Virus record (IMG/VR): IMGVR_UViG_3300032268_000973
Coordinates: 64,001 to 128,000 of that record
Source of the DNA: a virus
DNA length: 64,000 bases
Direction: 5' to 3' (one strand)
Positions within the stretch are counted from its first letter, which is position 1. Each line of letters starts with the position of its first letter. The notes beneath the pieces are model-generated. The model searched no databases and was not told where the DNA came from. It worked only from the letters and a program-made list of their open reading frames with translations. Shown in pieces: positions 38,327 to 60,987 of the stretch. The translations under genes were made by a program, and so were the position numbers.

Positions 38327-38821
38327 ATGAGTCAAGTTTTTTTCACAGATAACGAATGTGATGAGATAATTTCATTATCAACCAAATTAAAAACCCATCA
38401 TTCGAGTGAATGGTGGATGGGGGACAAAACGAGTTATTTTGCTTGGCACATAGAAAAAAATGAGGAAACAAAATGGATATTCGATAGACTTACATTATTT
38501 TTATCTAAAAATACCAATTTCAAACTATTAAAAGATATTGATATGATTCATTTACAAAATGTAAAACAGGGTCATGGGTTCGAACCACATATTGATAAAC
38601 ATAGTGAGTATAACATTGGAGTTTGTTTGAATATCGATTATGAGGGGGGAGAACTGATATGTCATGATTATAAATTATATATCCCCAAAATAAAAGGGCT
38701 TATCTATTCCTTTTATGGAACTCAGTTACATGAAGTAAAGAAAGTTTTATCAGGAGAACGGTGGTCGTTGATCGCATTTCTCGACAATACTATTATTGAA
38801 AGAAAAAAAGGTCTTATTTGA
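38327..38821 (+). CDS. Fe(II)/2OG oxygenase (prolyl-hydroxylase-like)
   Basis: FEPHID (HxD), YEGGEL, HEVKKVLSGERWSL. Confidence 0.8.
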   Translation: MSQVFFTDNECDEIISLSTKLKTHHSSEWWMGDKTSYFAWHIEKNEETKWIFDRLTLFLSKNTNFKLLKDIDMIHLQNVKQGHGFEPHIDKHSEYNIGVCLNIDYEGGELICHDYKLYIPKIKGLIYSFYGTQLHEVKKVLSGERWSLIAFLDNTIIERKKGLI

Positions 38822-38889: not shown

Positions 38890-41625
38890 ATGAAAGGAAC
38901 ATTATTTTCAGCCGATTTTGTAAAAGATTCTAATGGTAATTTAAGATTATTAGAGTTGAACACCGACACTGGATTCATAGACCAAGAGTTGGTGAATTTC
39001 AACTTCGATGAATTCTTAACAGTTTTATCATCAAATAATCTCACTACTTTAGATATTATTTACAAACCATACTTACATATTGATTTTGTGAATAAACTCA
39101 TTGAGGAGGTTAATACCAATCTCCCATCAGTAACAACGGTCAATCTACACGATGAGAATATCAACTCTATCTATCCAACATCCGTAATGGATAATGGAGA
39201 TAACTTTATACTAAGAATTGCCTACGATGAGTCTGCAATTTTTGATAGTACTTATTGTAAAAATAGACTAAATGTCTATAATCTTTTCACCGAAAATTCA
39301 ATTACTGATAATTGTGTTGCCTATTATCATTCCTCCGCTTTAGGAACATTCAACACTCTGGACAAAGAAATAAATGATAGTAATATTCCAGATGTTACAA
39401 TGAAAGACATTAACGAGTCTTTTAATCCGATTGATTTTTTCAAACTTGGTGGAAGTGGAACCCCCGAAGAGAAATGGGATAATTTTATTGCAGCAAATAG
39501 CAGTGATGATAAGTTGATAGAACAATATCATTTTCATTCGAGCGTTCCCGATTCTGATGGACACATGACTTCTATCAGGTATTTTGGTTTAGTATACGGA
39601 CCGAATTTGGATGTTATTACTCTACACACTTATAAAATTAGTGCTATATTCGAGTTGCCATCTACTATAGATTTTGATCCTGACACAAATAAGATTCAAG
39701 ATCAACATTACTATGAGTATACAACAAACTTTGTAAAAAGTGATTCTGGTGGAATTTTATCCAAACATGAAGTTCTAATGGACGATGATTCTTGGATAGA
39801 AATATCTCAGATACAAGTGGGTGAAACTATCAAGTCTTATTATGTTAGTGGATCTCCACAAAGCGAATCAGATTTAAACTCTCTGACATGGAATTATGAC
39901 GGAGGTCAATTTCCTATTGGATCATACATAACAACTTCTGATGTAATTTTCAAGGATGTTCAAACTATGAAGTATGGAGCTATGATGGAGATGGTTGTGG
40001 ATAGTGATTCGTTATTTTCGGGAATAAATAAAAAATATTTAGTTTTTGATAGTTTAACAAACAAAAGTAGTTTCAAGTTTATTTCAGAAATAAATGCAGT
40101 TACCGATTCACTTTACGACTTGGATGGAAACTTGATACAAGTTGATGAACTAAATTTTTATGTATCAACAGATAAAAATTTGACTTTTGTTGAAATAGAT
40201 GTTGAAGATACTGACACATATATAATAAATGGATCCACGGCTTTCCACAGTCTTGTATCTCACAACTCTCCTTGTTTTGTTGCAGGAACAAAGGTTATGA
40301 TGGAAGATGGGTCAACAAAAAATATTGAAGATGTTGTCGTTGGAGATATCGTCATGTCTTTTGATTTCAAAAATGACGAGGTAAGGGCTAGCAAGGTCAA
40401 TAATATTTTTTCAAAGAAGGTTAGTAAAATAGTAACCTACGAGTTTGATAATGGAGGTATTTTGAAGGCAACTTTAGATCACCCATTATTTGTGAATGGA
40501 AAAGGATGGTCCTCCTATGATAATGAGCTTTCAAATAGTTTATATAATATTGGAGAGGAGGTTCATAAAATAGAGGAAGGAGATTCGGTAAAATTATTGA
40601 ACAAAGATGTTAATTTGATTAAAATGACAATTTCTGATGAGGAAATAAAAGTCTTTAATTTATCAGACGTTGAGGTAAATCATAATTATTTCGCAAATGA
40701 TGTCTTAGTCCACAATAGAGCTTGTTTTGTTGAGGGGACTCTTATCGAGATGGGAGACGGATCTCAAAAACCAATCGAACAAATTGAAGTCGGTGACATC
40801 GTTGTATCATGGAATGTATTGGATAACACAAAGGAAAATCAAAAAGTTACTAATTTAATAAAACCAATTCATGATGATTTGGTTAAGTATACTTTTGATA
40901 ATGGTACGGAAATCGTTTGTACATTTGATCACCCATTCTTTGTTAATGGATTTAATTTATCTTCATACTCTCCATTACTCACGAATGAAAGATACAGCTT
41001 CAATGAAAAAGTGAGTGAAATAGAATTAGGGGATAGCGTTAATTTGATAAATGGAGAAAATAGTAGAATTGTTTCGATTGAAGAATTAGAAACCAAACCA
41101 ACCCAAACTTATATTTTTGAAGTCGAAAATAATCATAATTTCTACGCTAATGGTATTTTAACACATAATAAGGCATGTTTTGTAAATGGAACTAAAGTTT
41201 TGATGGGAGATGGTACCGAAAAAGGAATCGAAGAAATCGTGATTGGAGACACAGTAATTTCTTATAATGAAGATCTACATGTGTTGGAGGAAAAAAAGGT
41301 TGTTGACGTTAATTCACCAATTCATGATGATTTGGTCGAGTATGTTTTTTCTGATGGGAAAACTATAATTTCAACTTACGACCACCCATATTATATTGAA
41401 GGGTTAAAATTAGCATCATACAAACCTAGTTGGACAAACGAACGATACCAATTACCTGATGTTACCGAAATAAAAGTTGGGGATAAATTATATACCTCTA
41501 ATGGTAAAACTGTAGAAATATTATCAATAAGAGAACTTGAAAGAATAAACACTCAGACTCATATCATATCTGTCGATGGAAATCGGAATTTTTATGCAAA
41601 TGGGATTTTAGTACATAACAAATAA
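38890..41625 (+). CDS. Permuted ATP-grasp-like domain fused to four tandem Hint (intein-like) domains
   Basis: aa 1-287 ATP-grasp-like (SADF...LLELNTDTG, MKD, IEQY, SIRYF). Hint1 aa 288-459, Hint2 462-609, Hint3 612-760, Hint4 763-910. Hints 2-4 start CFV.GT, contain T..HP and end HN. Confidence 0.85.
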   Translation: MKGTLFSADFVKDSNGNLRLLELNTDTGFIDQELVNFNFDEFLTVLSSNNLTTLDIIYKPYLHIDFVNKLIEEVNTNLPSVTTVNLHDENINSIYPTSVMDNGDNFILRIAYDESAIFDSTYCKNRLNVYNLFTENSITDNCVAYYHSSALGTFNTLDKEINDSNIPDVTMKDINESFNPIDFFKLGGSGTPEEKWDNFIAANSSDDKLIEQYHFHSSVPDSDGHMTSIRYFGLVYGPNLDVITLHTYKISAIFELPSTIDFDPDTNKIQDQHYYEYTTNFVKSDSGGILSKHEVLMDDDSWIEISQIQVGETIKSYYVSGSPQSESDLNSLTWNYDGGQFPIGSYITTSDVIFKDVQTMKYGAMMEMVVDSDSLFSGINKKYLVFDSLTNKSSFKFISEINAVTDSLYDLDGNLIQVDELNFYVSTDKNLTFVEIDVEDTDTYIINGSTAFHSLVSHNSPCFVAGTKVMMEDGSTKNIEDVVVGDIVMSFDFKNDEVRASKVNNIFSKKVSKIVTYEFDNGGILKATLDHPLFVNGKGWSSYDNELSNSLYNIGEEVHKIEEGDSVKLLNKDVNLIKMTISDEEIKVFNLSDVEVNHNYFANDVLVHNRACFVEGTLIEMGDGSQKPIEQIEVGDIVVSWNVLDNTKENQKVTNLIKPIHDDLVKYTFDNGTEIVCTFDHPFFVNGFNLSSYSPLLTNERYSFNEKVSEIELGDSVNLINGENSRIVSIEELETKPTQTYIFEVENNHNFYANGILTHNKACFVNGTKVLMGDGTEKGIEEIVIGDTVISYNEDLHVLEEKKVVDVNSPIHDDLVEYVFSDGKTIISTYDHPYYIEGLKLASYKPSWTNERYQLPDVTEIKVGDKLYTSNGKTVEILSIRELERINTQTHIISVDGNRNFYANGILVHNK
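39751..40266 (+). other. Hint domain 1 (degenerate: Gly at position 1, no TxxH; keeps terminal His-Asn and a +1 Ser)
   Basis: GILSKHEVLMDDDS aligns with CFVAGTKVMMEDGS; ends DVEDTDTYIING...SHN. Confidence 0.65.
40273..40716 (+). other. Hint domain 2
   Basis: CFVAGT...ATLDHP...NYFANDVLVHN; the +1 residue is Arg. Confidence 0.9.
40723..41169 (+). other. Hint domain 3
   Basis: CFVEGT...CTFDHP...NFYANGILTHN; the +1 residue is Lys. Confidence 0.9.
41176..41619 (+). other. Hint domain 4
   Basis: CFVNGT...STYDHP...NFYANGILVHN; the +1 residue is Lys, followed by the stop. Confidence 0.9.
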
Positions 41626-41633
41626 TATAAAAA

Positions 41634-41786
41634 ATGGACGTTTCAAAACACCCTCAACTTTACAAAAAAAAACCGCTCAGCGAAGTAAAAAATAGAACAA
41701 CATCTCAGTTATCTACAACCGAAAAACAACGAATCGATAGTGTGATTGGTAAATTTTTTGAGTTGTTCGTGAACAAACATCTGTAA
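41634..41786 (+). CDS. 50-aa peptide (not in ORF track)
   Basis: MDVSKHPQLYKKKPLSEVKNRTTSQLSTTEKQRIDSVIGKFFELFVNKHL. It fills the gap, and its TAA overlaps the SET gene ATG (TAATG). Confidence 0.6.
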   Translation: MDVSKHPQLYKKKPLSEVKNRTTSQLSTTEKQRIDSVIGKFFELFVNKHL

Positions 41787-42223
41787 TGGATCCATACGAT
41801 TACATAAAAGATTGTGTTTTTGTAAAACTTAAGCCAAGTAAAATTTCAGGAATAGGAGTCTTTGCAATCAAAGATATTCCTAAGGATACAATCTTGTTTC
41901 AAACTTGGGAGGGTGAGACTGGATTTTACCCAATTAGTCAAAACCAATTGAACGAATTGGATGATGAAGTACGTCGACATATTCAAGATTTATTCATATA
42001 TTCTTCAGATTTCCCAAAAGATACTAACATTTATGTAAAATTAACAAATGGTTGTCATTGGGTTTATACTAATCCGTACCTATTCATTAACAGTGGATAT
42101 TATGAAAATAAATCAAACGTTGATAAAGATGGTATGAACTCTTTGAGATTTATAAAAAAAGGGGAAGAGTTACTTAGTAACTACCCAAGATATGAAAAAA
42201 TGATTAAGAAAATTTTAATATAA
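41786..42223 (+). CDS. SET-domain protein
   Basis: LKPSKISGIGVFAIKDIPKDT and IKKGEELLSNY. The canonical NHS reads FINSG. Confidence 0.75.
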   Translation: MDPYDYIKDCVFVKLKPSKISGIGVFAIKDIPKDTILFQTWEGETGFYPISQNQLNELDDEVRRHIQDLFIYSSDFPKDTNIYVKLTNGCHWVYTNPYLFINSGYYENKSNVDKDGMNSLRFIKKGEELLSNYPRYEKMIKKILI

Positions 42224-42811
42224 ATGGAAATAATTAAACTTTCAAACCAAGAAATTGTTTACAAAAGTCGATACAGTGGAGTTTATAATAAAAATGATTT
42301 TTTATTAAGGTTTGAACAGAATAAAAAAATTTCAACTATTCCTGAAGACAATTCTATATGGATAGAATTTGAATGTGATGAATTCAACTCAATTGATTCT
42401 TTTATCATGAATTTGATTGAAAAAGAAATTGCGAAAGAAAGTTTCAACTATTACGCTAAACATAGTTGGGTTTATACTCAAAAAAAAGGGTTTGATATGA
42501 CTTACATGCATCAACATTTGATACTACATTCAAGCACCAACCGATCACTCATCAAGTCTGATTATACATTTACGTTTTATGTTCAACAACCTAAAAATTT
42601 GATTGGTGATGAAGGGAAAATAATATTTCAAACAAAAGATGGTGTATTACATAAATTTTTACCAGAAGAAATGGATATTTTTATATTTCCTGCTAATATG
42701 CTTCATACCGCAGTACCAACGCCACTTCATGATGAATTTAGGGTGGTTTATGCTGGAAACTTTGCGTATAATTTTTTTGATAAAAAAACTAACAATTTGA
42801 ATCTAATTTGA
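42224..42811 (+). CDS. Putative Fe(II)/2OG oxygenase
   Basis: MHQH, FTFYVQQP, GKIIF, IFIFPANMLHTAVP and RVVYAGN. Confidence 0.7.
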   Translation: MEIIKLSNQEIVYKSRYSGVYNKNDFLLRFEQNKKISTIPEDNSIWIEFECDEFNSIDSFIMNLIEKEIAKESFNYYAKHSWVYTQKKGFDMTYMHQHLILHSSTNRSLIKSDYTFTFYVQQPKNLIGDEGKIIFQTKDGVLHKFLPEEMDIFIFPANMLHTAVPTPLHDEFRVVYAGNFAYNFFDKKTNNLNLI

Positions 42812-42891
42812 ATTAAAAATGATTATACTTCATCGGGGTAGATGATATTTTTAATATTTCATTTTGGAAAAATAAATTCAATTAAAGTTAT

Positions 42892-43341
42892 ATGATAAAA
42901 TACATAAATTCATTTTTGGATGATTGGGAAGTAAATTACTTTATCGACTTATTAACTAACTCTGAAATATCGTATCATGAAGATGATGTTTATAAGTTTT
43001 ATTTTTTGAATTTAATCAATTTAGAACTAAAGACAAAAAAATTCGAAAGCTTTGTCTTCAACAAATTTCGGATACAGATGACAAATGAAACTATTGATCA
43101 AATTGAGGCTTCTCATGGGCATTCAAATCCGTGGTCATTTGTAATTTTTTTAAATGAAAACTTCTTGGGAGGAGAAATTGTTTTTGGCAATAGACTATTT
43201 CTTCCAAAGAAAGGTGATATGATTTATTTTTCGGGAAATGAGAAACACTCCGTAAAAAATTGTGTTGGAAATAGATATACCTTAGTTGGGTTTATGTCAA
43301 ATAATCCTCTGAATATAGAAGATAGTAAATCAATTATTTAA
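42892..43341 (+). CDS. Putative Fe(II)/2OG oxygenase
   Basis: SHGH, SFVIFLNENFLGGEIVF, PKKGDMIYF, HSVK and RYTLV. Confidence 0.7.
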   Translation: MIKYINSFLDDWEVNYFIDLLTNSEISYHEDDVYKFYFLNLINLELKTKKFESFVFNKFRIQMTNETIDQIEASHGHSNPWSFVIFLNENFLGGEIVFGNRLFLPKKGDMIYFSGNEKHSVKNCVGNRYTLVGFMSNNPLNIEDSKSII

Positions 43342-44391
43342 ATGATCGATAAATCAAAATATTTGTGCACTACACCATTTTATTTCACTGAAGTGCAAGA
43401 CACAAAACAATTTCTGTGTTGTCCATCTTGGTTAAAAGAAAACATTGATGATGGAAATGGAATTGTATCTAGTTTCAACTCAGAAAGGGCAAAAGAAATA
43501 AGGGAAAGTATAATTGATGGAAGTTATAGATATTGCGAGGAGAATGAGTGTCCGTATCTATCAAGGTTGAAAAGTAATCGATTGCCTACAAGGTTTATAC
43601 CAAACACCCAAAAAAATGTTGAAATATTGAGACAGAACAAACATCCAAAAACTGTAAATTTTACATTTGATAGGAGTTGTAATTTTGTTTGTCCATCTTG
43701 TCGTCTCGAACTTATCAATTACAAAGGGAATCAAAGAGTTTCGGTTGAAAAAAAATTAGAAGAAATAAATGACGAGATTTCTGAATTTGTTGAACGTTTA
43801 GTAGTCACAGGAAGTGCAGATCCATTTTTCTCAAACTCATTTAGAAAGTTTTTGATCAATCTTGATACTAAAAAATTCAAAAACTTGAAAGGTATACATT
43901 TACATACCAATGCGTCTCTATGGACACCAGAAATGTGGGAAAAGATGAAAAATATTCATGTATACGTAGAAAGTTGTGAAATATCTATAGATGCATCAAC
44001 TAAAGAGACATATGAACAAAAAACAAGAATCGGAGGTAACTGGGATATTTTACATGAAAATTTGAAATTTATAACAAAAATACCAGATATAAAGTTTTAT
44101 ATCTTCTCTTTTGTTGTACAAGATACAAATTATAAAGAAATGTATGATTTCTATAAAATGATAGAGAGTTATATGAAAGAAAGGAATGATGATGCAAAAT
44201 GGGAAGTAAGAACTAATGTGATTGTAAATTGGGGAACATATTCTGAAGAACAATTTAAAGTTAAAGATGTTTCCAATCCCGCTCATCCCGATTATAATTT
44301 ATTTATAGGTGAATTATATAAGATTAAAGATTTTCCAAATATCGTACATAACTTCCATCATTTATATGAGACCAAATCTCCCTTGATATGA
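43342..44391 (+). CDS. Radical SAM protein with N-terminal Cys-rich (twitch-like) region
   Basis: CTTPF...LCCPSW...CEENECP, CNFVCPSC, VTGSADPF and SIDA. Confidence 0.85.
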   Translation: MIDKSKYLCTTPFYFTEVQDTKQFLCCPSWLKENIDDGNGIVSSFNSERAKEIRESIIDGSYRYCEENECPYLSRLKSNRLPTRFIPNTQKNVEILRQNKHPKTVNFTFDRSCNFVCPSCRLELINYKGNQRVSVEKKLEEINDEISEFVERLVVTGSADPFFSNSFRKFLINLDTKKFKNLKGIHLHTNASLWTPEMWEKMKNIHVYVESCEISIDASTKETYEQKTRIGGNWDILHENLKFITKIPDIKFYIFSFVVQDTNYKEMYDFYKMIESYMKERNDDAKWEVRTNVIVNWGTYSEEQFKVKDVSNPAHPDYNLFIGELYKIKDFPNIVHNFHHLYETKSPLI

Positions 44392-45218
44392 AAAAGAAAA
44401 TTTTGATAACTATGGGGTGTTCCTTGACCGAAGGTCTTGGTTGTTACGATTTGAATAAAATTAGACCCGAAGAAATTGTGGAATCAAATAAGAGGAAATA
44501 TCCTCTTTTGAATGATGAGGAATACTTGTATCAGAGAAATCTATTTCATAATAATGGATGGCCAATTATTTTGGCGAAAAAATTAGGGTTTGATAAACTA
44601 ATAAATTTAGGTCTTGCGGCATCTTCACAATCAGGGAATGTCAAACAATTTGTAGAAAAATATTTAGATAAAAACTTTTTTGATTGTGAAGTTTTCATAA
44701 TTTGGATGATTTCTATACCAGAAAGATTTTCATTCTATAATAACCACAAAGTACAGACCTACTTACCAACTACGGAAAAAGGAAATAGGGTTGATTTAGA
44801 AAAATCGTGGTTAAAAGAAATCAAAGATATCCCTTACGATTCAAGCTATGAAACTATTTTTTATATAAGGATAATGGAACAAATTTGCCAAAACAAAAAC
44901 TATTCACTTCTAATCACGTCATGGGTACACAACCTAATGGTTAAACTAAATAAAATTTATCAATCGGAGAACTACATAAACCCAATAAATTTTCAACCTT
45001 GGGAAATCACTAACATAAAAAAATTCACGTTGGATCATTATTCTAAAATGGGATGTGGGCATCCCAATGAGGAAGGGTACAAGTTAATTGCTGAAAATTT
45101 GTATGATGTAATCGTTAAGAATCATAGAGAATTTTTACAAGGACCATATCAAGAAAATATTGAGATGGTTTACGATGGAGATGTTTTAGATTGGAAAAAA
45201 AAACAAACAATAATTTGA
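44388..45218 (+). CDS. SGNH/GDSL-like protein
   Basis: TMGCSLTEG, NLGLAASS, GHPNEEGY. Confidence 0.7.
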   Translation: MKKKILITMGCSLTEGLGCYDLNKIRPEEIVESNKRKYPLLNDEEYLYQRNLFHNNGWPIILAKKLGFDKLINLGLAASSQSGNVKQFVEKYLDKNFFDCEVFIIWMISIPERFSFYNNHKVQTYLPTTEKGNRVDLEKSWLKEIKDIPYDSSYETIFYIRIMEQICQNKNYSLLITSWVHNLMVKLNKIYQSENYINPINFQPWEITNIKKFTLDHYSKMGCGHPNEEGYKLIAENLYDVIVKNHREFLQGPYQENIEMVYDGDVLDWKKKQTII

Positions 45219-45224
45219 TAAACT

Positions 45225-46049
45225 ATGAAAAAAAAATTATTGATAACTTTAGGTTGTTCTTTTACTGAAGGAGTGGGATGTTATGATCCTGATACAATAC
45301 CTATTGACATGGTTGATAGAATGAAACATGAAAAAATAGAAGAGGTCTATATTTCGAATAAATCGAGATTTCATAACTATTCTTGGCCATCTCAGTTACA
45401 AAAAAAACTTAAATACGATAAATTGATAAATCTAGGATTAGGGGGGTCATCAACATCGGGTAATCTGAAAGTATGGTTCGAAAAATATTATGACAAAAAT
45501 TTTTCGGATGACTATGATGTTTTGATAATTTGGATGTTACCTGAGCCAACTAGATTTTCCTTTTATCGAGAGCGTAAAATAATGAACATCAACCCATCAA
45601 TGGCTAAGAATGTTTATAACATCTACAGTTATGACCTTGGGATTGAATATATCAATTTTTTGGAAAATTTAGATTTAGATCCAATCTTAGAACAAATTTT
45701 CTATTTAAAAATTTTTGAAGATCACCTAAAAAACCAAAAATATAATTTCCTTTATGTTCCTTTGAATCATACTCAAAATTGGTATTTTGATAAGCTTTAT
45801 AAAGCTGATAGTATGATAAATTTGAAAGAGAGTGTTCTCCCTAATTTTGTTATAAATCCTGATATGAAATCTTTAATTTGTAATCATCCAAACGAAAAAG
45901 GATATGAACAAGTTTCGGAAAAAATATTTGAATGGATTAAAAAATACAAACAAAATTTGATATCTGAAAATAATCCAACAGTATATGAATCAGTTTGGGA
46001 TGGATATCCAATTTTAGATCATTTAGAGGGGTATAGAACACTGATATAA
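45225..46049 (+). CDS. SGNH/GDSL-like protein (close paralogue of 44388)
   Basis: TLGCSFTEG, NLGLGGSS, NHPNEKGY. Confidence 0.7.
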   Translation: MKKKLLITLGCSFTEGVGCYDPDTIPIDMVDRMKHEKIEEVYISNKSRFHNYSWPSQLQKKLKYDKLINLGLGGSSTSGNLKVWFEKYYDKNFSDDYDVLIIWMLPEPTRFSFYRERKIMNINPSMAKNVYNIYSYDLGIEYINFLENLDLDPILEQIFYLKIFEDHLKNQKYNFLYVPLNHTQNWYFDKLYKADSMINLKESVLPNFVINPDMKSLICNHPNEKGYEQVSEKIFEWIKKYKQNLISENNPTVYESVWDGYPILDHLEGYRTLI

Positions 46050-46544: not shown

Positions 46545-47202
46545 TATAAATCATAATTTCATTATAGTATGGAATAAAATTATCATTCCAAATTTGACTA
46601 GTAATATCAATTCCATCGAATGAGATAATTTTAAAATTAGGGAAAACTCGTAAATATAAATCCCTGAAAACAGTGAATTTGGATTTCATCCAAGGTTCAC
46701 CTAAATGCCATTCTCCAACTATTTTTCTCACATTATTTTTTATCCAAAACAAATTTTCAACAGTGAATATGTCGTATTCACCTGTTTCACAATCAGTTTT
46801 TAAAAAATCAATTTTTTGTATATTATAATCTTCAATAACTTTTTGGAAAGTTGTTGAATACAAAACATCATTGTTTGAATTTTCGAATACAAATTTAAAA
46901 TCAAATTTACCTATTTTATCAGATATCCCTTTGTTTATGTGTGTAACGTTTCCATGTCTTGTATTCATTGCAAGTGTTTTGAATTCTTCAAAACTTGGTT
47001 CGAAACAAAACACGTGTTTTGGGTTACGATCTAAAATCGAAAATGTAAATGGACCCAAACTAGCCCCGATATCAAAAACGATATCACCTTCCTCGACTTC
47101 GAAAAATCTTTCGTAGATTTTATCTTGAAAAATTTCTTTAGTCACAGTTTCTTGGAATCCATTATAACACTTAGGTTCCCATATAAAATTTTCTAAATTC
47201 AT
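46528..47202 (-). CDS. FkbM-family methyltransferase
   Basis: Start reassigned to ATG 47202 (ATGA overlap). FDIGASLG, CFEP, IDFLKTDCETGE. Confidence 0.8.
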   Translation of the reverse strand: MNLENFIWEPKCYNGFQETVTKEIFQDKIYERFFEVEEGDIVFDIGASLGPFTFSILDRNPKHVFCFEPSFEEFKTLAMNTRHGNVTHINKGISDKIGKFDFKFVFENSNNDVLYSTTFQKVIEDYNIQKIDFLKTDCETGEYDIFTVENLFWIKNNVRKIVGEWHLGEPWMKSKFTVFRDLYLRVFPNFKIISFDGIDITSQIWNDNFIPYYNEIMIYIDNRN

Positions 47203-50200
47203 ACAAGTAAATTTTGAATTTGATTTATTACCATTTTTGATGTGATTGAAGTGTGACATTCGAATTGTCTTGAAGTCCCTTTGTGGAGGGGACACCAATT
47301 CCAATCACCTCTATCAAACTTGAAGTCGGCATTGTTCCAACAACTGTTACATACGTTAGGATTTGTAATTCTTGTGCAATTTGAAGTAAACTCATGGTCT
47401 TTTTCCGTAAAGTTACTAATCATGACTACGTGTTTTCCTAAAGCCCAAGATAACCAAGACAACCCGCTAGAAAGACCTATAAAGAAGTCACTATGATAAA
47501 TAACATTCATTGTATTTTCTATAGATGTGTCAGTAATTTTTTCACAATTATCGAATGCATTATCTTCCTTAGATACATTGATGACTTTATATCCAATGGA
47601 AGTTAGGTGATTTATCAATTCTTGCCATCCTTCTCTTGTCCAAAATTTACAACCAGCGGTAGAGTTGGTTGCAATTGTAATATATTTTGTATCATACGGG
47701 TTATCTTTTGGGACGAATGAAATTCTTGGCCTAATTTCTTCAAATGGTAACCCCAATATATTTGTCGCAGCTTTCTGTAATGGAATTGTGTTTGGTAAAG
47801 TTGGTTCTTTATTAAGGTCATAAAACCAACCGAGATTATATTGCCCAAATATACCGTGAACTATACTTCCAGGTTCCACAAATTCTAAATTTGGATAAAC
47901 ATCCTTGAATAACTTGTTCCAATAAGTACAAACTGTAACATCACATTGATGAACCTCTTTGAATTTTTCAACATATGGTAACCAAGCAATGTTGTCCCCC
48001 AAAGATTTACTATCGAAATTTATAAAAACACGAAGACCTGTATAGTCCAAAGTTTTATCGTATATCAAATCTCCATTCTCAAATATTTTTGTTCTCCAAC
48101 GGGTAAAATATTCCCTATTCAATTTTATCCAATGATTTGATTTAATGACATTGTGATAATGACAATAATTTTCTTCGTCGAACAACATGATGCTAAAATC
48201 GCTATCACTTTCTCCTTTGATTTCTAAGAAAGGTTGGTTAATAAAATATTGGGTTATTGAAATATTTGGATCAATCATATTATTTTTTTTGATTTCATTA
48301 GACATTATTTTTTTATAAAAAATATAATGAGTATCTGCAAATTTCTCTAAAGAACCTTTAGTCTCATTATATTTTCTTTCTGAACTTATTAGATCTCGTA
48401 ATATTTGAACATTTCTTTCCAAATCTTCTTCGAGATTTACAATGAATGGATCAAACATTTCCATGTATTGTGGTAAATTACGGCAAATAATTTTTAATCC
48501 ATAAGAAGCCGCTTCTCTCACAACTAATGGATTACATTCCCAAGTTGAATTGAAAATAAAAACATCTGAAGCTTTCATAAATGTTTCAATGTCTCCTCTT
48601 TCTCCCCAAATATGAACATTGGAAGGTAAATTCAACATTAATGGTTTCCAATATTCCTCAAAGTTTGGGGCTTGATTACCCACGAAATGGAATTCAACTC
48701 CCTCAGATTGAAAATATCTTGCGATATCGATAGCTTCCTTTTGATTTTTTCCTTGTGACCATAGCCCAACACTCAATACATGAATTTTTGTTGGGTCAAA
48801 GTCCAATTCCATTTGCGCGTTTGTCTGATCTTCTTTATTTCTGAATTTATTTTCAATCGGAAATTCCATTACCTCAGTTGGAGAAGACACATTTTTGAAT
48901 GTTTGTTGTTCATGGAATGGAGTACAAAAAGAGTATCCGTCGGGGTCATATTTCTTCATCAATTCTGGTTTAAACCAAATGTTGTGACAAGTTTCCACCA
49001 TTCTCCAAGTTCTATTATTATCATATAAAGCTTTCATTACAGTTCCTGAAACTTTATTGAATGAGTCAAAACCTTCTATCATTTCATCCACATGTACAAT
49101 ATCGATATTATTTCGTTTGATGATGTCGATTATCTTCAGTGAATCCGTGTCATTATTATTACCTAATGAATTCAGGGTCCAAAATCTATTTTCGGGAATA
49201 ATATTTTTGATAATATCTCGTTGAACGGTATATGTTGATGAATACAGGCAATATTCAACAACGTAGATTTCAATCTCAGGATAATTTTTTTGTAATGATT
49301 GAATTCTTTTCAATAGGTATGCTGGCATTCCTCCAGTCGATAAATGTGGGGCCAAATAAAGTATTCGGAGTTTTTTGGAAAACTTGTCTGAAAAAAACTC
49401 ATTATTTTTGTCGTTCCAAGGTGAGTTAATAAGCAAATTTTCAGAGATTGAAGTATCTCCAACTTCAAAATTTAATTCTGATAGTGTGGTATAATAAACA
49501 TCAGATGTAAGATTAGTTGCACTATAAAAATCTCTATTTACCGAAGCAAAATAATCCATAAATTTAAATTCCCCTCCGATTAAATTTTTACCTAAATTTA
49601 CATAATGGTTTGGCACACCATAAGCATCTGATACAATTAAACCGTGTAAACTTGAAGATAGAATCAATTCACATTCCAATAATTGATCTATAAATTCATA
49701 GATACCAGCGGTAATATTCACAATTTTTACCCCCAAATCTTCTAACTGGTTGATTGTCTTTAAACATAAATCCGATTGAAAATCTGAATAGTGGGGTATA
49801 ACACCATACTTATATCGTTTTTCAATATTCGGATTATACTTTTTCGGGAAAAGTAATGCGGGATCACCAAACACATTTGGAACATCCCATCCATTTTTCA
49901 ACAAACAATTTCTTGTTAGAGGGCCTCGAACTGCATAAACTTTTTGCGGTATATCACCTATGCTGTAAGGATCCAAACATCCTGGCCCCCAAACATAATC
50001 ATTGGGTTTGGAAAATAGGAGATTACTTCCGACAGATAAAATTTTACCATTTTTTTCAATCATTTGTCCCTCAGTGTCAAAATGAAAAACATCCGTATCT
50101 TCTAACGATTTCTGTGAAAAGTGAGTTAAAATATGTTTCGATACTATATCTCCCCAATTATTTTCAGGTTTTATATATTCGTATTTTCTTATATAGAAAT

Positions 50201-52943
50201 ATTTTTGGATATCGTGCATCATCATCTCCATTATTTCGGGATCTTTTTCTCCGTGAAAAAACAGGACTTGTTCTTTGATTGATGGAGCTCTTAACCAATC
50301 TCCCAAAAAGTTTAAAACATCTGGACCTTTATATTCCACTTGTGTAAACATCTTCTTAACAGTTTCCAAAGTTCCGTTGACGTATAGGTATGGAAGACCA
50401 ATGTCTATTTTGTATTTCCAAAGTAAAACATTCAAGATGGTTTCTTCATCATAAGGGGCATAATGGCTTATGTCTTTTTCAATTTTTGGGTGTTTACACA
50501 TCCAATACCATTCATCTAAGAAGTCCAAAGTATTTTGACCTGCCACAAAGTAACCCGTTTGTCTGTATAGTTTTCTGACCGATTGGTCGACACTAAAAAG
50601 TTCACAAGCATTGTGTTCTAATGTATCACATAATTCCCCTCCTAATGGTCCTCCTTTACCTCTTCCATTGTATGTAAGATATTCATATACACCTTCAACA
50701 AAATATGGGAAAGGTGATTTACGGTCGTAGTAAAAGAAGATTGTGTCAACTAATGGTGTTGCAACTGAATCACTATCCACATAACAAACGTTGTGGGCAT
50801 ATTTTTGAAGAGCGTCTTTAATTATGAGAGGTCTTTGAATTAAAATCTTATATATTGTTGGATTTTTTCTATCAATATAAAAATTACCTTCAACGGATAG
50901 GTATGAATTTTCATCTGGTTGGTCAATATCACAATCCCATCGTATGACTGTTACGTCATCCACATTTATTTTTTTGTTGGAGTTAATCAAATAAACTATG
51001 ATTGGAATTCCACTATATCTTCTGATTGATTTGACACACATTGTGACAACATCCAAATAATTTTCAGTACAATATAGAACAAACGCTTTGTCTGATTTGG
51101 ACTGATACTTATCTGTGAAGTAATACCCGTATTCGTCATTCGAATAGATCATATTCAACTTTGGATATCTTGATGACATTACCTTAGGGGTCAAATCATA
51201 TTGATGATGGGTTTCATACTTATTTCCAAAGCATTCACTTTGTTTCATCAAATAATGAACCCCAACCAAGCAAGTTTTAAATTTGAAGTGTATTCGATCA
51301 ATCAAATCAACTGATTGAACTTCTGTCAAGTGATCCAATACATCCCCTAAAATTAAAAAATCGTATTCACTGAAGTCAAAGTCACATATGTCTCCAATGA
51401 ATACGTTGTCATATTTTTCTCGTAAATTAAATTCACTAACATAGGGTTCCCAAATTTCTATGCAATCCATTTGATAACCAAATTGCCTTAATAAGTCAGA
51501 ATATGTTCCTTTTCCTGGCCCAACATCTAAAATTTTACTGTCTAAAGGAATATTTGCGATTATAAAATCCCTTACTTCTTCTTTATAAAATTTATTATTT
51601 TCGGAGCAATATTGAACAAGTTCTTTGAAATGTTTTGGAGATTCTTTTGAATTAGGATTCATAATTATGAATTCGTCTTTAGAAACGTTAGTTCCATACA
51701 AATAACCGTGATAAGTAATAGCACCGTTGTATATCAAATTTATTTCATTTTCAATTTGAAATTCTCTAACTGGAGAATCAACTCTGTAAAATCTATAATC
51801 ATCTATTAACGATAGGATTGCTTTGCTGTAAGCGACAGGACCCGTCAAATGAAGGACAGCTTTTTTTCCTTTTTTTCCATCATAATTTCTTATGTTTTCT
51901 TTGACAAGTTCAATAGTTTGTTTTAAAAAAGGGTGATTTGGAACACTTATAATGTGCCAGTTTTGAAATTCCCCCAACTGGTATTCTAATAATTCATTCC
52001 AATCTTTTCCAATCCAATGAGAGAGTAAGTATTCATCTGTTGGGAGAATTGTTTCACTCAAAGGTCTACTCGTTGAAGATTTGATATCTAGATAGACACC
52101 TCCGATTTTATAAATCAAAAGGTATCTGAAAAAATCAGCTCTACATGATCCATAATTGGGATTTATACTTAGATATAACGAAAGTGTTTCATCATCATAA
52201 TGTTCTTTGATAAAATTGTAACAATCTTCGTCATCATAAAATCTATATTCGAAATCAGGATTCATTTTTTTTAAATTTTCTACCGTATTCTCGATTTCTT
52301 TTGGTAGTTCTTTCGTCCTGAATGTTTGATGAATTATTTTAGGTATTTTTATTTTTGTGAGAACAACATCGGTTTCATTGTAACTTATTTGATAATTTTT
52401 GAATCTTTGAAGTAATTTATTTATTTCTTCGATGTTGGATACATTTGGGTGTTTTTCGAATTTGATTTTGTCAGCAAATAATATTGGTAATTTTTCACAC
52501 ATATCTAAATAGTCATTCAGAATTACGTGATCATATCCTTCAGTATCAATTTTTAAGTATCCAATAGACCCTACTTCTTCACTTTGAACTAGAGTCTTCC
52601 AAGAAACGGTGGGTACTTTATCAATTTTTACAATTGAATTGTATAGTTCCTCACCTAATTCTTTAATAGCAAAAGGATGAGGGTGATTTACGCTATTACT
52701 TCCTCTTATCCACCATTTTAAATCGTGTTCTTTAATTTTTTCATCAGGTATGTAATAAATGTCTATGTCACCGTCCACATCTGATACCGCTAGTTGAATT
52801 TTTTTGACGTTTTTTTTATTTGGTAATCTGTCTAAATAATATTTTATCGGTTCTATACTAAGACCAACCATATTATCGTCCGACGATTCAATTAAAGTGT
52901 CAAAATCGGATGTCCCGATTTCTATAAAATCGTAATGTTTCAT
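47199..52943 (-). CDS. 1914-aa multi-enzyme: FkbM-like MTase, GT32, class I MTase, GT-A, pyruvyltransferase, GT4, TibC/AAH-like heptosyltransferase
   Basis: IEIGTSD/LKIDTEGYD; IPKIIHQ/RADFFRY/GGVYLD; ILDVGPG; YVDSD/DETILN; NWGD/VRGPLT/GDPALL/SSSLHG; STGG/STWECNPLVVREA; SLGDNIAW/IGLSSGLSWL/CNSC..CP..FEC. Confidence 0.8.
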   Translation of the reverse strand: MKHYDFIEIGTSDFDTLIESSDDNMVGLSIEPIKYYLDRLPNKKNVKKIQLAVSDVDGDIDIYYIPDEKIKEHDLKWWIRGSNSVNHPHPFAIKELGEELYNSIVKIDKVPTVSWKTLVQSEEVGSIGYLKIDTEGYDHVILNDYLDMCEKLPILFADKIKFEKHPNVSNIEEINKLLQRFKNYQISYNETDVVLTKIKIPKIIHQTFRTKELPKEIENTVENLKKMNPDFEYRFYDDEDCYNFIKEHYDDETLSLYLSINPNYGSCRADFFRYLLIYKIGGVYLDIKSSTSRPLSETILPTDEYLLSHWIGKDWNELLEYQLGEFQNWHIISVPNHPFLKQTIELVKENIRNYDGKKGKKAVLHLTGPVAYSKAILSLIDDYRFYRVDSPVREFQIENEINLIYNGAITYHGYLYGTNVSKDEFIIMNPNSKESPKHFKELVQYCSENNKFYKEEVRDFIIANIPLDSKILDVGPGKGTYSDLLRQFGYQMDCIEIWEPYVSEFNLREKYDNVFIGDICDFDFSEYDFLILGDVLDHLTEVQSVDLIDRIHFKFKTCLVGVHYLMKQSECFGNKYETHHQYDLTPKVMSSRYPKLNMIYSNDEYGYYFTDKYQSKSDKAFVLYCTENYLDVVTMCVKSIRRYSGIPIIVYLINSNKKINVDDVTVIRWDCDIDQPDENSYLSVEGNFYIDRKNPTIYKILIQRPLIIKDALQKYAHNVCYVDSDSVATPLVDTIFFYYDRKSPFPYFVEGVYEYLTYNGRGKGGPLGGELCDTLEHNACELFSVDQSVRKLYRQTGYFVAGQNTLDFLDEWYWMCKHPKIEKDISHYAPYDEETILNVLLWKYKIDIGLPYLYVNGTLETVKKMFTQVEYKGPDVLNFLGDWLRAPSIKEQVLFFHGEKDPEIMEMMMHDIQKYFYIRKYEYIKPENNWGDIVSKHILTHFSQKSLEDTDVFHFDTEGQMIEKNGKILSVGSNLLFSKPNDYVWGPGCLDPYSIGDIPQKVYAVRGPLTRNCLLKNGWDVPNVFGDPALLFPKKYNPNIEKRYKYGVIPHYSDFQSDLCLKTINQLEDLGVKIVNITAGIYEFIDQLLECELILSSSLHGLIVSDAYGVPNHYVNLGKNLIGGEFKFMDYFASVNRDFYSATNLTSDVYYTTLSELNFEVGDTSISENLLINSPWNDKNNEFFSDKFSKKLRILYLAPHLSTGGMPAYLLKRIQSLQKNYPEIEIYVVEYCLYSSTYTVQRDIIKNIIPENRFWTLNSLGNNNDTDSLKIIDIIKRNNIDIVHVDEMIEGFDSFNKVSGTVMKALYDNNRTWRMVETCHNIWFKPELMKKYDPDGYSFCTPFHEQQTFKNVSSPTEVMEFPIENKFRNKEDQTNAQMELDFDPTKIHVLSVGLWSQGKNQKEAIDIARYFQSEGVEFHFVGNQAPNFEEYWKPLMLNLPSNVHIWGERGDIETFMKASDVFIFNSTWECNPLVVREAASYGLKIICRNLPQYMEMFDPFIVNLEEDLERNVQILRDLISSERKYNETKGSLEKFADTHYIFYKKIMSNEIKKNNMIDPNISITQYFINQPFLEIKGESDSDFSIMLFDEENYCHYHNVIKSNHWIKLNREYFTRWRTKIFENGDLIYDKTLDYTGLRVFINFDSKSLGDNIAWLPYVEKFKEVHQCDVTVCTYWNKLFKDVYPNLEFVEPGSIVHGIFGQYNLGWFYDLNKEPTLPNTIPLQKAATNILGLPFEEIRPRISFVPKDNPYDTKYITIATNSTAGCKFWTREGWQELINHLTSIGYKVINVSKEDNAFDNCEKITDTSIENTMNVIYHSDFFIGLSSGLSWLSWALGKHVVMISNFTEKDHEFTSNCTRITNPNVCNSCWNNADFKFDRGDWNWCPLHKGTSRQFECHTSITSKMVINQIQNLLV

Positions 52944-60400: not shown

Positions 60401-60987
60401 CTACAATGGAGTTAATGTTCTATGGTGCGGACAATTTTAATGGAAATGTCAGTAATTGGAATGTATCAGGAGTAACAAGCATGGCAGGAATGTTTTGGGA
60501 CGCGACTACATTTAATCAAAATATTGGTGGTTGGGATGTTTCAAATGTCACCGATATGAGTAGAATGTTCCGAAGTGCGGCGGCATTCAATCAAAACATC
60601 AGTGGATGGGATGTATCTAGTGTCACTAACATGCTAGAAATGTTCTATTTAGCCGCAAACTTCAATCAAAACATTGGTGGATGGGATGTTTCGAGTGTAA
60701 CAGATATGGAGGGAATGTTCAATAGTGCAAGTATTTTCGATCAAAATATCGGAAGCTGGGATATTTCTAATGTGACTAATTTTGTAGATTTCATGAACAA
60801 TAAAACATTTACGAATTATAGTTCAACTAACCTTAATGCTATTTATAATGGATGGAGTTTGTTGACCCTACAACCTAATATAGTGATTGATTTCAATACA
60901 ATAAAATACACTGCGGCTGGACAATCAGGAAGAAACATTTTGACAGGAGCCCCAAACAATTGGTCAATTACTGACGGAGGTATATAA
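57430..60987 (+). CDS. Putative receptor-binding protein: shared N-module, delta-60-type propeller, PT linker, DUF285/BspA-like solenoid
   Basis: Seven ~51-aa repeats (Q.DGK...GG.F..Y.G...N.I.RLN.DGS.D..F..G), a TPTNT linker and 25-aa WDVSNVTNM..MF..A..FNQ.I repeats. Confidence 0.8.
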   Translation: MEVQCTINNITGQTPYDIYVCQTDGSGCFYISTINNSSFPYVFNIPAPYNTSPNYMIKAIDANNCIISGSSAVQFFPTPTPTPWDFCYELDGGFNNQAEAAVEDSSGRIIFGGIFTTYSGQSFNRIVRVNSNGSIDNTFTIGTGFDNDVYAVELQPDGKILVGGIFSSYSGVSANKIIRLNSDGTVDNTFSSGSGFNFSVWSFAVQPDGKIVVGGGFTTYSGQSANSIIRLNSDGSIDNSFSIGSGLNNIAYDIIEQTDGKKLVLGSFTSYSGQTHNRILRLNNDGTVDNTLNVGTGFNSEVYSCVLEDDGKMVIVGLFDQFSGQTYRQIVKLNADGSIDNTFNVGTGFQRSVGLCFALSVFKYDTKYFITGDFDFYNGNSANGLIQLNSDGSKDTSFNYGTGLLFSGTSFNTGLLLSSGVHIVYGQFTQYNGYEVNDVAYLNPFGTLLNCPQLTPTPTATPTLTPTNTPTTTRTPTNTPTTTSTPTNTPTTTSTPTTTPTTTTTPTNTSTINITPTATPTNTTTTTTTPTPSPTYGGLTPFVSVWNTSNTSVGSSASNQIALPLQSSGAYNFVVNWGDSNTNTITSWNQPEVTHTYASPGQYTITISGTCEDFGFGGGGDRNKLLTIISFGNVVLGDITTQFSNCFNLTLTGVTDTPDLSSMTTLAQMFYGCSGLTTINNINLWDVSNITNMLSMFQGATNFNDDISSWDVSNVTNTSYMFSAAQDFNQDIGSWDVSNVTNMGGMFQFASSFNQDLNTWNVSSATTFSYMFQGATAFDSNISSWNVSNATTMVQMFDQATSFNQSISGWNVSNVTTMIGMFGSASSFNQNIDSWNVSNVTNMASMFTNADSFNQSLNSWNVSNVTNMAGMFSLANVFNGDITSWNVSGVTNMGQMFLSAVSFNRNIGSWNVSNVTNMGQMFASASIFNQDISSWDVSSVTDMGSMFNSALAFNQNIDTWDVSSVTDMFFMFSNANSFNQNLNSWNVSNVTTMELMFYGADNFNGNVSNWNVSGVTSMAGMFWDATTFNQNIGGWDVSNVTDMSRMFRSAAAFNQNISGWDVSSVTNMLEMFYLAANFNQNIGGWDVSSVTDMEGMFNSASIFDQNIGSWDISNVTNFVDFMNNKTFTNYSSTNLNAIYNGWSLLTLQPNIVIDFNTIKYTAAGQSGRNILTGAPNNWSITDGGI
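57703..58780 (+). repeat. Seven delta-60-type repeats (probable 7-bladed beta-propeller)
   Basis: GGFNN/TGFDN/SGFNF/SGLNN/TGFNS/TGFQR/TGLLF starts, about 51 aa apart. End coordinate approximate. Confidence 0.75.
59482..60756 (+). repeat. 17 exact 75-nt (25-aa) DUF285-like repeats plus a partial 18th
   Basis: Trp codons at 59482 and 60757 are 1275 nt (17 x 75) apart. Confidence 0.9.

Follow-up and report, generated by a model that had tools for sequence, protein, structure and literature searches.

A predicted ligase–Hint gene in an uncultured phage

The window analysed here, a 64,000-nucleotide stretch covering positions 64,001 to 128,000 of the virus record IMGVR_UViG_3300032268_000973, carries a single open reading frame at 38890–41625 (+) that translates into a 911-aa protein. 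It comprises a predicted ATP-grasp ligase, a disabled Hint domain and three Hint domains that appear active. At least 864 homologues were found, and the M-K-G-T start of the protein is kept throughout the family. A previous sequence-only reading of this DNA had described four Hint units that meet at SHN-SP-CFV, VHN-RA-CFV and THN-KA-CFV and end in VHN-K-stop, and the translation reads as quoted. Hint1 is joined to Hint2 through V-S-H-N459/S-P/C462-F-V, with the spacer S460-P461 at 40267–40272 (+); Hint2 to Hint3 through L-V-H-N609/R-A/C612-F-V, with R610-A611 at 40717–40722 (+); and Hint3 to Hint4 through L-T-H-N760/K-A/C763-F-V, with K761-A762 at 41170–41175 (+). The protein ends in L-V-H-N910/K911, the terminal Lys and the stop codon occupying 41620–41625 (+).

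The gene is followed closely by a conserved 50-aa partner open reading frame (41634–41786, +) that starts 8 nt past its stop codon. An open reading frame of 28–51 aa lies 3–86 nt downstream in 42 of 42 family-1 loci, including those of distant members without active Hints; searches of Pfam and the Atlas gave no lead for the 50-aa protein. Upstream lies a gene for a 2OG-Fe(II) oxygenase (38327–38821, +; PF13640), and paralogues of its cluster lie in 77 of 79 loci. Downstream, a SET-domain protein (41786–42223, +), a 2OG-oxygenase-like protein (42224–42811, +) and a 2OG-Fe(II) oxygenase (42892–43341, +) follow in an order that recurs in family-1 loci, with a phrog_81 match inside this block (41786–43341), and a radical SAM enzyme (43342–44391, +; PF04055) has its cluster in 32 loci. 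The neighbouring genes are mosaic. Neither the partner nor the oxygenase genes, nor the fact that the active Hints are optional, had been noticed before. The 183-kb record also encodes a DNA polymerase, a helicase and an SbcC-like protein; searches of it for gp23, an NCLDV capsid, the T4 portal and psbA gave no match, with controls silent for three of these four. The source is an uncultured large phage.

Three Hints of bacterial intein-like type

Hint2 (residues 462–609; 40273–40716, +), Hint3 (residues 612–760; 40723–41169, +) and Hint4 (residues 763–910; 41176–41619, +) each carry the residues of a catalytically complete domain. In Hint2 these are C462, T528-x-x-H531 and H608-N609, with R610 at +1; in Hint3, C612, T678-x-x-H681 and H759-N760, with K761 at +1; and in Hint4, C763, T829-x-x-H832 and H909-N910. 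Pfam and NCBIfam models give three full Hint/intein matches with exactly these boundaries, far beyond chance (E-values of 2.8e-24 for Intein_splicing, 4.4e-19 for Hint, 7.1e-15 for PT-HINT, 3.8e-18 for intein_Nterm and 3e-9 for intein_Cterm). The top Pfam match, AXH, was rejected as a sign of ataxin-like function; that model merely overlaps the N-terminal half of the Hint domains. Hint2 belongs to a clade of first active Hints that end in HNR, Hint4 to a terminal clade that ends in HNK, and Hint3 groups with the terminal-type Hints.

All 25 three-Hint orthologues, which reach down to 45% identity, keep Cys1, the T-x-x-H of block B, the terminal H-N, the +1 residues (R, K and K) and the terminal Lys unchanged. 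The ratio dN/dS is 0.05–0.13 (maximum 0.28) in every Hint with measurable dS; dS is saturated in many of the pairwise comparisons and the estimate rests on the remaining part. On these ratios, the active Hints are under purifying selection. Active units are 148–149 aa long; at about 149 aa per unit a homing endonuclease would not fit, in keeping with the sequence-only reading that none is present.

Canonical class-1 mini-inteins, such as the cyanophage-like gp41-1 (6qaz), share the fold and the A, B, F and G block motifs with these domains. Whereas canonical inteins are followed by Cys, Ser or Thr, the phage Hints have R610, K761 and K911 at +1, positions that are conserved as basic residues. 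They also lack a conserved housekeeping insertion site and a C-extein to ligate: the flanks are one or two residues or another Hint, and a single Lys follows the last unit. The likeness to A-type bacterial intein-like (BIL) domains is closer. Like the Clostridium thermocellum BIL (2lwy), a domain of about 140–150 aa, Hints 2–4 have Cys1, TxxH and His-Asn and carry neither a Cys, Ser or Thr at +1 nor an endonuclease. In searches of PDB sequences their closest solved relative is BIL2 of a Tetrahymena BUBL protein (E of 3e-16 by phmmer and 4e-23 by profile); the C. thermocellum BIL follows with a profile E of 6e-18, and both BILs rank above all inteins. By sequence, then, Hints 2–4 are closest to A-type BIL domains, in line with the BIL-type signature originally proposed for them.

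A disabled Hint and a predicted ligase domain

HMM searches of residues 285–459 (Hint1; 39742–40266, +) gave no match, and the fourth Hint emerged from structure prediction. An AlphaFold2 model of residues 1–461 (pLDDT 92, pTM 0.87) places in this unit a fold that matches the C. thermocellum BIL (2lwy) with a Z score of 19.8 and an r.m.s.d. of 1.4 Å over 138 residues, and Tetrahymena BUBL BIL2 (6tmm) with a Z score of 18.9. In the model the Hint fold is unmistakable, so that the proposed total of four Hint units holds, three by HMM and one by predicted structure. The array had been placed from position 39751, which is codon 288 (Gly), and the fold search pairs Gly288 with intein residue 1. Hint1 thus has Gly in place of Cys1 and lacks the block-B His, and it retains E439, D442, H458 and N459. 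Across 74 relatives, some as little as 20% identical and some without any active Hint, N459 never varies, and conservation of H458, E439 and D442 is 90% or more. This pattern fits the suggestion that Hint1 would cut only at its C-terminal end; the Ser at +1, to which significance had also been attached, is Ala in most relatives.

Residues 1–284 (38890–39741, +), whose identity had been missed, are by predicted fold and conserved polar residues an ATP-grasp ligase of the glutathione synthetase and glutathionylspermidine synthetase class, in the circularly permuted form. The modelled domain matches 5oeu (Z score of 10.0), YgiC with ADP (7uka; 9.5), 3n6x (9.2), GspS (2io7; 9.1) and Cp1B (9cjn; 8.3), so that glutathione synthetase, GspS, YgiC and Cp1B are all recovered at Z scores of 8–10 over 204–231 residues. 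Foldseek returns 7uk8 at E 2e-5, with matches to the class between 2e-5 and 3e-4. Sequence models do not detect the relationship: Pfam gave no match to residues 1–287 or 1–459 at E up to 10, including GSP_synth and CP_ATPgrasp, and a profile search against PDB sequences matched Hint structures only and no ligase structure. The domain shares the fold of glutathione synthetase, glutathionylspermidine synthetase, YgiC/YjfC and Cp1B; it differs from glutathione synthetase in lacking the first roughly 120 residues of that enzyme and in being fused to a Hint. D9, E22, N24, T25 and D119 are invariant in the 74 relatives and R109, K172 and R230 nearly so. The E-x-N motif lies close to the N-terminus, where the permuted class would have it; E22 and N24 presumably equal the Mg ligands E144 and N146 of human glutathione synthetase.

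The arrangement of the remaining Hints is less well defined. A model of the full-length protein, built on a shallow alignment of 25 rows, has a pLDDT of 72.7 and a pTM of 0.44, falls below 50 at the junctions and gives no confident Hint arrangement; a complex prediction of the core (1–461) with Hint4 (763–911) scored 0.01, which counts neither for nor against contact.

Optional Hints and variable spacers

In hundreds of metagenomic relatives the conserved unit is the ligase with the disabled Hint. The design is common in marine viral metagenomes and the family is apparently viral throughout, its Atlas clusters being viral and its members located in phage-like contigs. Searches of a collection of cultured phages by tblastn with the whole protein, the N-terminal module, a distant Hint-less member and a family-2 protein found no homologue of the architecture; they returned ordinary inteins in helicase or terminase genes only.

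Active Hints are optional add-ons, numbering zero to three per protein and sometimes exchanged as cassettes. Among 109 complete representatives, a set outside which the 911-aa protein itself stands, the core is followed by no further Hint in 27, by one A-type Hint only in 33, by two in 28 and by three in one; in about 20 others the last Hint is partial or of B type. Proteins that lack an active Hint finish with HN and a tail of 1–60 aa. The last residue is Lys in 62 of the 109, compared with 24% of neighbouring proteins, an enrichment seen across cargo types.

The survey of homologues that the sequence-only reading had called for found spacers to be anything but constant in length, ranging from 0 to about 60 residues. 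At the junction of Hint1 with the first active Hint, the spacers of 67 representatives at 50% identity comprise zero (16), one (6), two (27) or three or more (18) residues, and S460-P461 is absent or of another length in many relatives. Between active Hints the spacer is 1–10 residues long, with two in 8 of 41 such representatives. R610 is invariant in orthologues and the residue after it changes freely or is missing (HNR-CF); K761 is likewise invariant and is followed by 1–5 variable residues. The +1 Arg or Lys is the one spacer position conserved across the family. Because spacers vary from 0 to about 60 residues and only this position is kept, the defined dipeptide products once suggested (SP, RA and KA thioesters) are unlikely, and the two-residue spacers look like variable linkers.

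A proposed self-cleaving array on a phage ligase

The reading that we favour, with a probability of roughly 60%, is a self-cleaving BIL-type array carried by a phage ligase; we infer cleavage and its order from the motifs and from the known behaviour of BILs. The conserved core would be the ATP-grasp amide ligase (residues 1–284) packed against Hint1 (residues 285–459), in which the N-terminal nucleophile appears lost and the C-terminal machinery, namely the acidic block-F residues and His458-Asn459, retained. Hint1 would act as an asparagine lyase only, with cyclisation of Asn459 cutting off everything downstream. The exchangeable and optional tail, in the 911-aa protein three apparently complete A-type BIL-like Hints, would follow known Hint chemistry, each active Hint forming a thioester at the junction before it and a succinimide at the junction after it. 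Since Hints 2–4 are followed by no Cys, Ser or Thr, the array would detach from the ligase and fall apart, with no splicing; BILs that lack a +1 nucleophile give mainly cleaved products (PMC7664689, PMC7765530). The two-residue spacers would be linkers, with the +1 Arg or Lys, taken as part of the Hint unit, alone under selection. One observation counts against part of this scheme: a Pro at −1 disfavours the N–S acyl shift in studied inteins, and the invariant Pro461 at −1 of Hint2 therefore suggests that this junction may be cut by Asn459 alone. The 50-aa downstream protein and the neighbouring 2OG-Fe(II) oxygenases are probably the working partners of the core.

From the sequence-only interpretation, this model keeps the Hint count, the BIL signature, the state of Hint1 and the lack of an endonuclease, and drops dipeptides as the purpose of the array along with the +1 Ser. 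Simple self-removal leaves unexplained why +1 is strictly Arg or Lys, why the terminal Lys is invariant and why C-terminal Lys is enriched, and it is odd for self-discarding domains that over long distances the Hints retain more identity than the core (54–57% compared with 43% for the ligase core). The idea that fragments starting with Arg or Lys after Asn cleavage expose an N-degron fails on the terminal Lys, which has nothing downstream to destabilise.

The same chemistry could instead make the protein a precursor platform that releases peptides bracketed by Hints, a reading that we think unlikely. The upstream Asn would free the N-terminus of each peptide and the downstream Cys1 would make its C-terminal thioester, giving S-P, R-A, K-A and Lys from the 911-aa protein; an amine-bearing dipeptide thioester could cyclise (S-P to a diketopiperazine) or pass to a nucleophile, and modification of the products would fall to the oxygenases, SET and radical SAM enzymes encoded nearby. 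Enzymes of tailoring type are indeed linked to the gene, three-Hint orthologues never vary at Pro461, and first spacers of two residues are most often A-P or S-P. The general logic is also favoured by three relatives with Cys-rich peptides of 35–60 aa at spacer or tail positions: P0209 has about 60 residues between Hint1 and an active Hint, P0210 about 35 between two active Hints and P0232 about 50 following the last Hint. Distant Hint-less members similarly end in Cys-rich tails of 20–60 aa after the invariant HN. These observations have to be set against the 16 of 67 first junctions with no spacer, the free choice or loss of the second spacer residue, the retention of nothing but the +1 Arg or Lys between active Hints, and the little sense that a single free Lys or Arg makes as a product. 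Extended to the whole family, the idea becomes a long shot: a viral, protease-free ribosomal route to small peptides, from X-Pro dipeptides to Cys-rich peptides of 60 residues. Asn cyclisation by the disabled Hint upstream and thioester formation by an active Hint downstream may yield a peptide with a free amine and an activated carboxyl, and the ligase, the 50-aa partner and the oxygenase, SET and radical SAM neighbours may complete a new class of peptide natural-product pathway.

A transfer reaction of the Hedgehog or BUBL type, in which the thioesters of Cys462, Cys612 and Cys763 are resolved by a chosen nucleophile and not by water, strikes us as improbable. The attacking group might be the ε-amine of the conserved +1 or terminal Lys; alternatively, the 50-aa partner or a host protein might contribute a Lys, or the ligase might supply an amine. 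The polypeptide upstream, be it the ligase core or a Hint, would thereby become covalently linked to a target. Conservation of the +1 Lys or Arg and of the terminal Lys suits such a reaction, and the B-type last Hints in about 20 of the 109 representatives lack HN and are followed by a conserved extra C-terminal stretch, at the site of the adduct-recognition region of Hedgehog. According to PMC8616854, Tetrahymena BUBL BIL2, the nearest solved relative, forms Lys-isopeptide conjugates without ATP, and nucleophilic side chains are reportedly dispensable for ligation by the C. thermocellum BIL (cited in PMC7664689 from Aranko 2013). However, the first active Hint is followed by Arg, which is a weak nucleophile, no acceptor was identified, and Hints 2–4 keep the His-Asn that Hedgehog-type domains lack.

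That the Hints are selfish or decaying remnants, parasitic mini-inteins heaped in the short basic tail of a ligase and functionless or perhaps inactive, is very doubtful: their copy number varies from 0 to 3, cassettes are replaced (Hint3 by another Hint type in P0021, P0023 and P0025), the joined 'extein' residues (S-P, R-A, K-A and K) look like the short tails, rich in Lys and Pro, of Hint-less members and nucleotide identity to the nearest relative with DNA falls from about 0.87 to 0.72 exactly at the Hint1/Hint2 boundary, but classical homing or splicing is impossible with neither a homing endonuclease nor a +1 nucleophile, the catalytic residues are all invariant with low dN/dS, and the Hints mostly co-diverge with the core (Spearman 0.59–0.84) and diverge less than it at long range. 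As the neighbouring genes are mosaic too, the drop in identity is weak evidence.

Discussion

The proposed self-cleaving array departs from each of the systems that it most resembles. The BILs known so far occur singly in variable bacterial proteins that are often secreted, whereas up to four phage Hints stand head to tail, 0–2 residues apart, at the end of an ATP-grasp ligase, and the first of them is constitutively disabled at its N-terminal site. Ciliate BUBL proteins (Tetrahymena BIL2, 6tmm and 6y75) likewise hold several BILs per polypeptide; there the BILs alternate with ubiquitin-like cargo, whereas no domain separates the phage Hints, which lie 1–2 residues apart with an enzyme as the upstream cargo. 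Hedgehog (Hog) and PT-HINT proteins resemble the phage protein in having a functional domain at the N-terminus and, after it, a Hint that sets it free or activates it, and polymorphic toxins share the variable C-terminal cargo after a Hint (PT-HINT match; Atlas). Hog domains, however, lack His-Asn and carry a sterol-recognition region, whereas Hints 2–4 end in His-Asn, some relatives having a Hog-like last Hint. PT-HINT proteins are secreted bacterial toxins; in the phage family the conserved part is the ligase and the Hint array is the tail.

To our knowledge, Hint domains have been known as inteins, Hedgehog processing domains and single BILs, with arrays solely from ciliate BUBL loci. A literature search for tandem Hint, intein or BIL arrays and for ATP-grasp domains joined to a Hint found no description of either. 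The combination reported here appears to be new: a predicted ATP-dependent amide ligase, a Hint reduced to its Asn-lyase half, and zero to three BIL-type Hints set nearly back to back. If processed as predicted, the protein would be a natural multi-site self-cleaving polyprotein, and it could provide compact orthogonal cleavage modules, natural Hint junctions of zero to two residues and an Asn-only Hint.

Iyer et al. (2010) described large marine phages with runs of 2OG-Fe(II) oxygenase genes and proposed that these modify peptides or metabolites (PMC2938197). The ligase–Hint gene is flanked by the same kind of array as these cyanophage tandem dioxygenases, and that paper mentions Hint or intein-like domains 0 times. 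Together, the ligase, its 50-aa partner and the 2OG oxygenases point to an uncharacterised pathway within the marine-phage dioxygenase arrays, which have long been unexplained.

A ligase-like protein with four Hint domains

The gene under study occupies window positions 38890–41625 on the plus strand as a single open reading frame of 911 amino acids. Its translation reads SHN-SP-CFV, VHN-RA-CFV, THN-KA-CFV and VHN-K-stop at the Hint junctions, identical at all four to the sequence-only reading, which had proposed four tandem Hints joined by dipeptide spacers. Pfam and NCBIfam models each matched three stretches (residues 462–609, 612–760 and 763–910; Intein_splicing E = 2.8e-24, Hint 4.4e-19, PT-HINT 7.1e-15, intein_Nterm 3.8e-18), and the same three Hint matches came back when the entire 183-kb virus record was searched. 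Residues 1–461 had no Pfam match, even at E 10. The predicted structure shows a Hint fold at residues 285–459, closest to the bacterial intein-like (BIL) domain of C. thermocellum (2lwy; Z score of 19.8, r.m.s.d. 1.4 Å, 138 residues aligned), with Z scores of 18.9 for BIL2 of the Tetrahymena polyubiquitin-like (BUBL) protein and 14–19 for many inteins. Because intein residue 1 falls on G288 in the fold alignment, the protein contains four Hints, the first carrying Gly in place of Cys1, as the initial reading had held. The tandem Hint feature is thereby confirmed, and its earlier interpretation is partly supported. The full-length model does not fix the relative placement of the Hints, and a complex prediction pairing the ligase–Hint1 core (1–461) with Hint4 (763–911) scored 0.01, which speaks neither for nor against a contact.

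The core was modelled by aligning residues 1–461 with 73 relatives (identity down to 20%) and folding the alignment (pLDDT 92, pTM 0.87); a pTM this high suggests a single rigid unit made up of the ligase and Hint1. Residues 1–283 match glutathione synthetases, glutathionylspermidine synthetase, E. coli YgiC/YjfC and the fungal ligase Cp1B (Z score of 8–10 over 204–231 residues), and Foldseek recovers the same ligase class at E = 2e-5 to 3e-4. By predicted fold and conservation, rather than by any sequence model, this domain is assigned to the circularly permuted ATP-grasp amide ligases, among which is Cp1B, the E-64 biosynthesis enzyme that links a carboxylic acid with an amino acid (PMC12568646). 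Residues D9, E22, N24, T25 and D119 are invariant in the 74 aligned sequences and R109, K172 and R230 nearly so, a pattern that fits an active enzyme. The terminal Asn of Hint1, N459, is likewise invariant (74/74), and conservation is 90% or higher at H458, E439 and D442.

A viral family with variable Hint number

A word-seeded search recovered at least 864 homologues of the 911-residue protein, and exhaustive phmmer with residues 1–461 yielded 257 representatives of 50%-identity clusters. Every complete representative has a start resembling M-K-G-T and the ligase–Hint1 core. An HMM derived from active-Hint sequences served to score the architectures of 109 complete representatives. This survey of copy number, proposed in the sequence-only reading, found zero to three A-type Hints (ending in His-Asn) after the core: none in 27, where nothing Hint-like follows, one in 33, two in 28 and three in 1. 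The last Hint is B-type (Cys1 without His-Asn) in about 20 of the 109, and past it the chain continues in an additional conserved stretch; in P0081, P0093, P0122, P0137 and other homologues this stretch reads ..S-G-L-G-D-N..L-N..F-K-R-Q.. and is reminiscent of an adduct-recognition region.

The sequence after the Hint1 Asn differs among relatives and consists of active Hints, of 1–10 Lys/Pro-rich residues or, in distant members, of Cys-rich peptides of 20–60 residues. The Cys-rich peptides lie between Hints or come after the core's invariant HN (P0209, P0210, P0232 and P0240–P0271), and several contain C-P-E-C motifs. In P0209 roughly 60 Cys-rich residues separate Hint1 from an active Hint, and P0210 has about 35 residues between two active Hints.

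Atlas clusters sharing the ligase–Hint fold are 96–100% viral (Uroviricota), and the contigs on which distant members lie also encode PhoH, HSP20, TROVE and peptide deformylase. The ligase–Hint gene occurred in none of the cultured phages in the collection searched. A second family in viral contigs (L041 and L043–L081; for example, L048:5251–7929) has a distantly similar N-domain of about 300 residues that shares a D..ELNT motif, then a disabled Hint that runs from A-S-G-S to L-V-H-N-I-P-P-K, and two or three active Hints. Two to five tandem 2OG oxygenase genes always lie downstream of it, and the small partner ORF described below is absent.

The active Hints are conserved and of BIL type

The sequence-only reading had staked its case in part on conservation of the catalytic Cys, His and Asn, and in Hint2–4 of 25 three-Hint orthologues (45–84% identity) Cys1, T-x-x-H, H-N and the residue after each Asn (+1; R610, K761 and K911) are all invariant. 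The nearest solved proteins by sequence are BUBL BIL2 (E = 3e-16) and the C. thermocellum BIL, with gp41-1 and other inteins ranking below. Where dS is unsaturated, the only range in which the ratio was taken, dN/dS of the Hints is 0.05–0.13 (once 0.28). Over long range the Hints are 54–57% conserved, versus 43% for the core.

Mean pairwise identity across 14 three-Hint orthologues is 55–61% in each domain, whereas Hints of one protein share just 33–58% with each other, so the triplication predates these orthologues. In a tree built from 156 Hints, types separate by position, with a clade of first Hints ending HNR and clades of terminal Hints ending HNK; Hint3 of the 911-residue protein groups with the terminal type. 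Divergence of the Hints mostly tracks that of the core (Spearman 0.59–0.84), and in P0021, P0023 and P0025 Hint3 has been swapped for another type (34–36% identity versus 55–65% for their other Hints). Nucleotide identity to L085, the nearest related locus with DNA, is about 0.87 up to the Hint1/Hint2 boundary (window 40273) and only about 0.72 beyond it; synonymous divergence from this locus is 0.64–0.71 in the core and saturated in the Hints, and adjoining genes are mosaic too.

Gene neighbourhood

Adjoining ORFs were clustered across 79 loci, the window included. Paralogous 2OG-Fe(II) oxygenases (PF13640) occur in 77 of them, usually as one to five tandem copies directly after the ligase–Hint gene, and radical SAM (32 loci), SET (16), carbamoyltransferase (16), methyltransferase and GNAT genes also recur. 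Arrays of the same kind were described as tandem dioxygenases in cyanophages by Iyer et al. 2010 (PMC2938197); that account makes no mention of the Hint/intein-like domains that are present here.

A 50-residue ORF (window 41634–41786, plus strand) starts 8 nt past the ligase–Hint stop codon. A homologous ORF of 28–51 residues follows the gene in all 42 loci of its own family, one Hint-less distant member among them, with a conserved Y-K near its start and an amphipathic helix at its C terminus that ends K-H-S or K-H-L, the latter in the window's copy. It matched no known family in Pfam or the Atlas. As this ORF accompanies the core and not the Hints, its product is likely a partner or substrate of the ligase.

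Elsewhere in the window, two adjacent paralogues of about 275 residues each (44388–46049, plus strand) have only faint GDSL/SGNH-lipase-like matches, and members of their cluster (cluster 25) again adjoin a radical SAM gene in related loci. A 1,524-residue collagen-repeat protein with a C-terminal Peptidase_S74 intramolecular chaperone domain (2036–6610, plus strand) is likely a tail fibre, and its gene accounts for a block of GC 0.45. A 1,914-residue protein (47199–52943, minus strand) combines methyltransferase, several glycosyltransferase, pyruvyl transferase and heptosyltransferase-like domains, and a 1,185-residue protein (57430–60987, plus strand) carries ten DUF285 repeats and DUF5122 beta-propeller repeats.

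Proposed processing of the array

In established Hint chemistry, Cys1 and TxxH generate a thioester at the N-terminal junction, the terminal His-Asn cuts the C-terminal junction through succinimide formation, and absence of a +1 nucleophile leads mainly to cleavage (PMC7664689, PMC7765530, PMC8616854). Lacking Cys1 and TxxH, Hint1 is predicted to cut solely after N459. The array would then detach from the ligase and split into single Hints, which we consider the most likely course. Alternatively, a Lys may take up the thioester, a reaction that BUBL BIL2 is reported to perform.

Activated spacer peptides may also be released, as the sequence-only reading suggested for the dipeptides. Among representatives, two-residue spacers occur at just 8 of the 41 junctions joining two active Hints and at 27 of the 67 that follow Hint1, and 16 representatives have no spacer (HN-CF). 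Close orthologues differ freely in the second spacer residue, lack it (HNR-CF) or have a longer spacer (HNK-GGGS-CF), and two-Hint forms have up to ten residues of linker past the +1 Arg. Basic character at +1 did hold up in this survey of spacer identity (R in 19 of 41, K in 10 of 41), and Lys is the final residue of 62 of the 109 representatives versus 24% of neighbouring proteins; length and second residue were not conserved. Since just the basic +1 residue and the terminal Lys are retained, we read S-P, R-A and K-A as linkers, not selected products. The Cys-rich inserts of relatives and the conserved basic +1 residue are unaccounted for by simple self-removal.

Literature searches on tandem Hint, intein or BIL arrays and on ATP-grasp combined with Hint found no published description of the ligase–Hint array. 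Its Hints are of BIL type, and its architecture and context are new.
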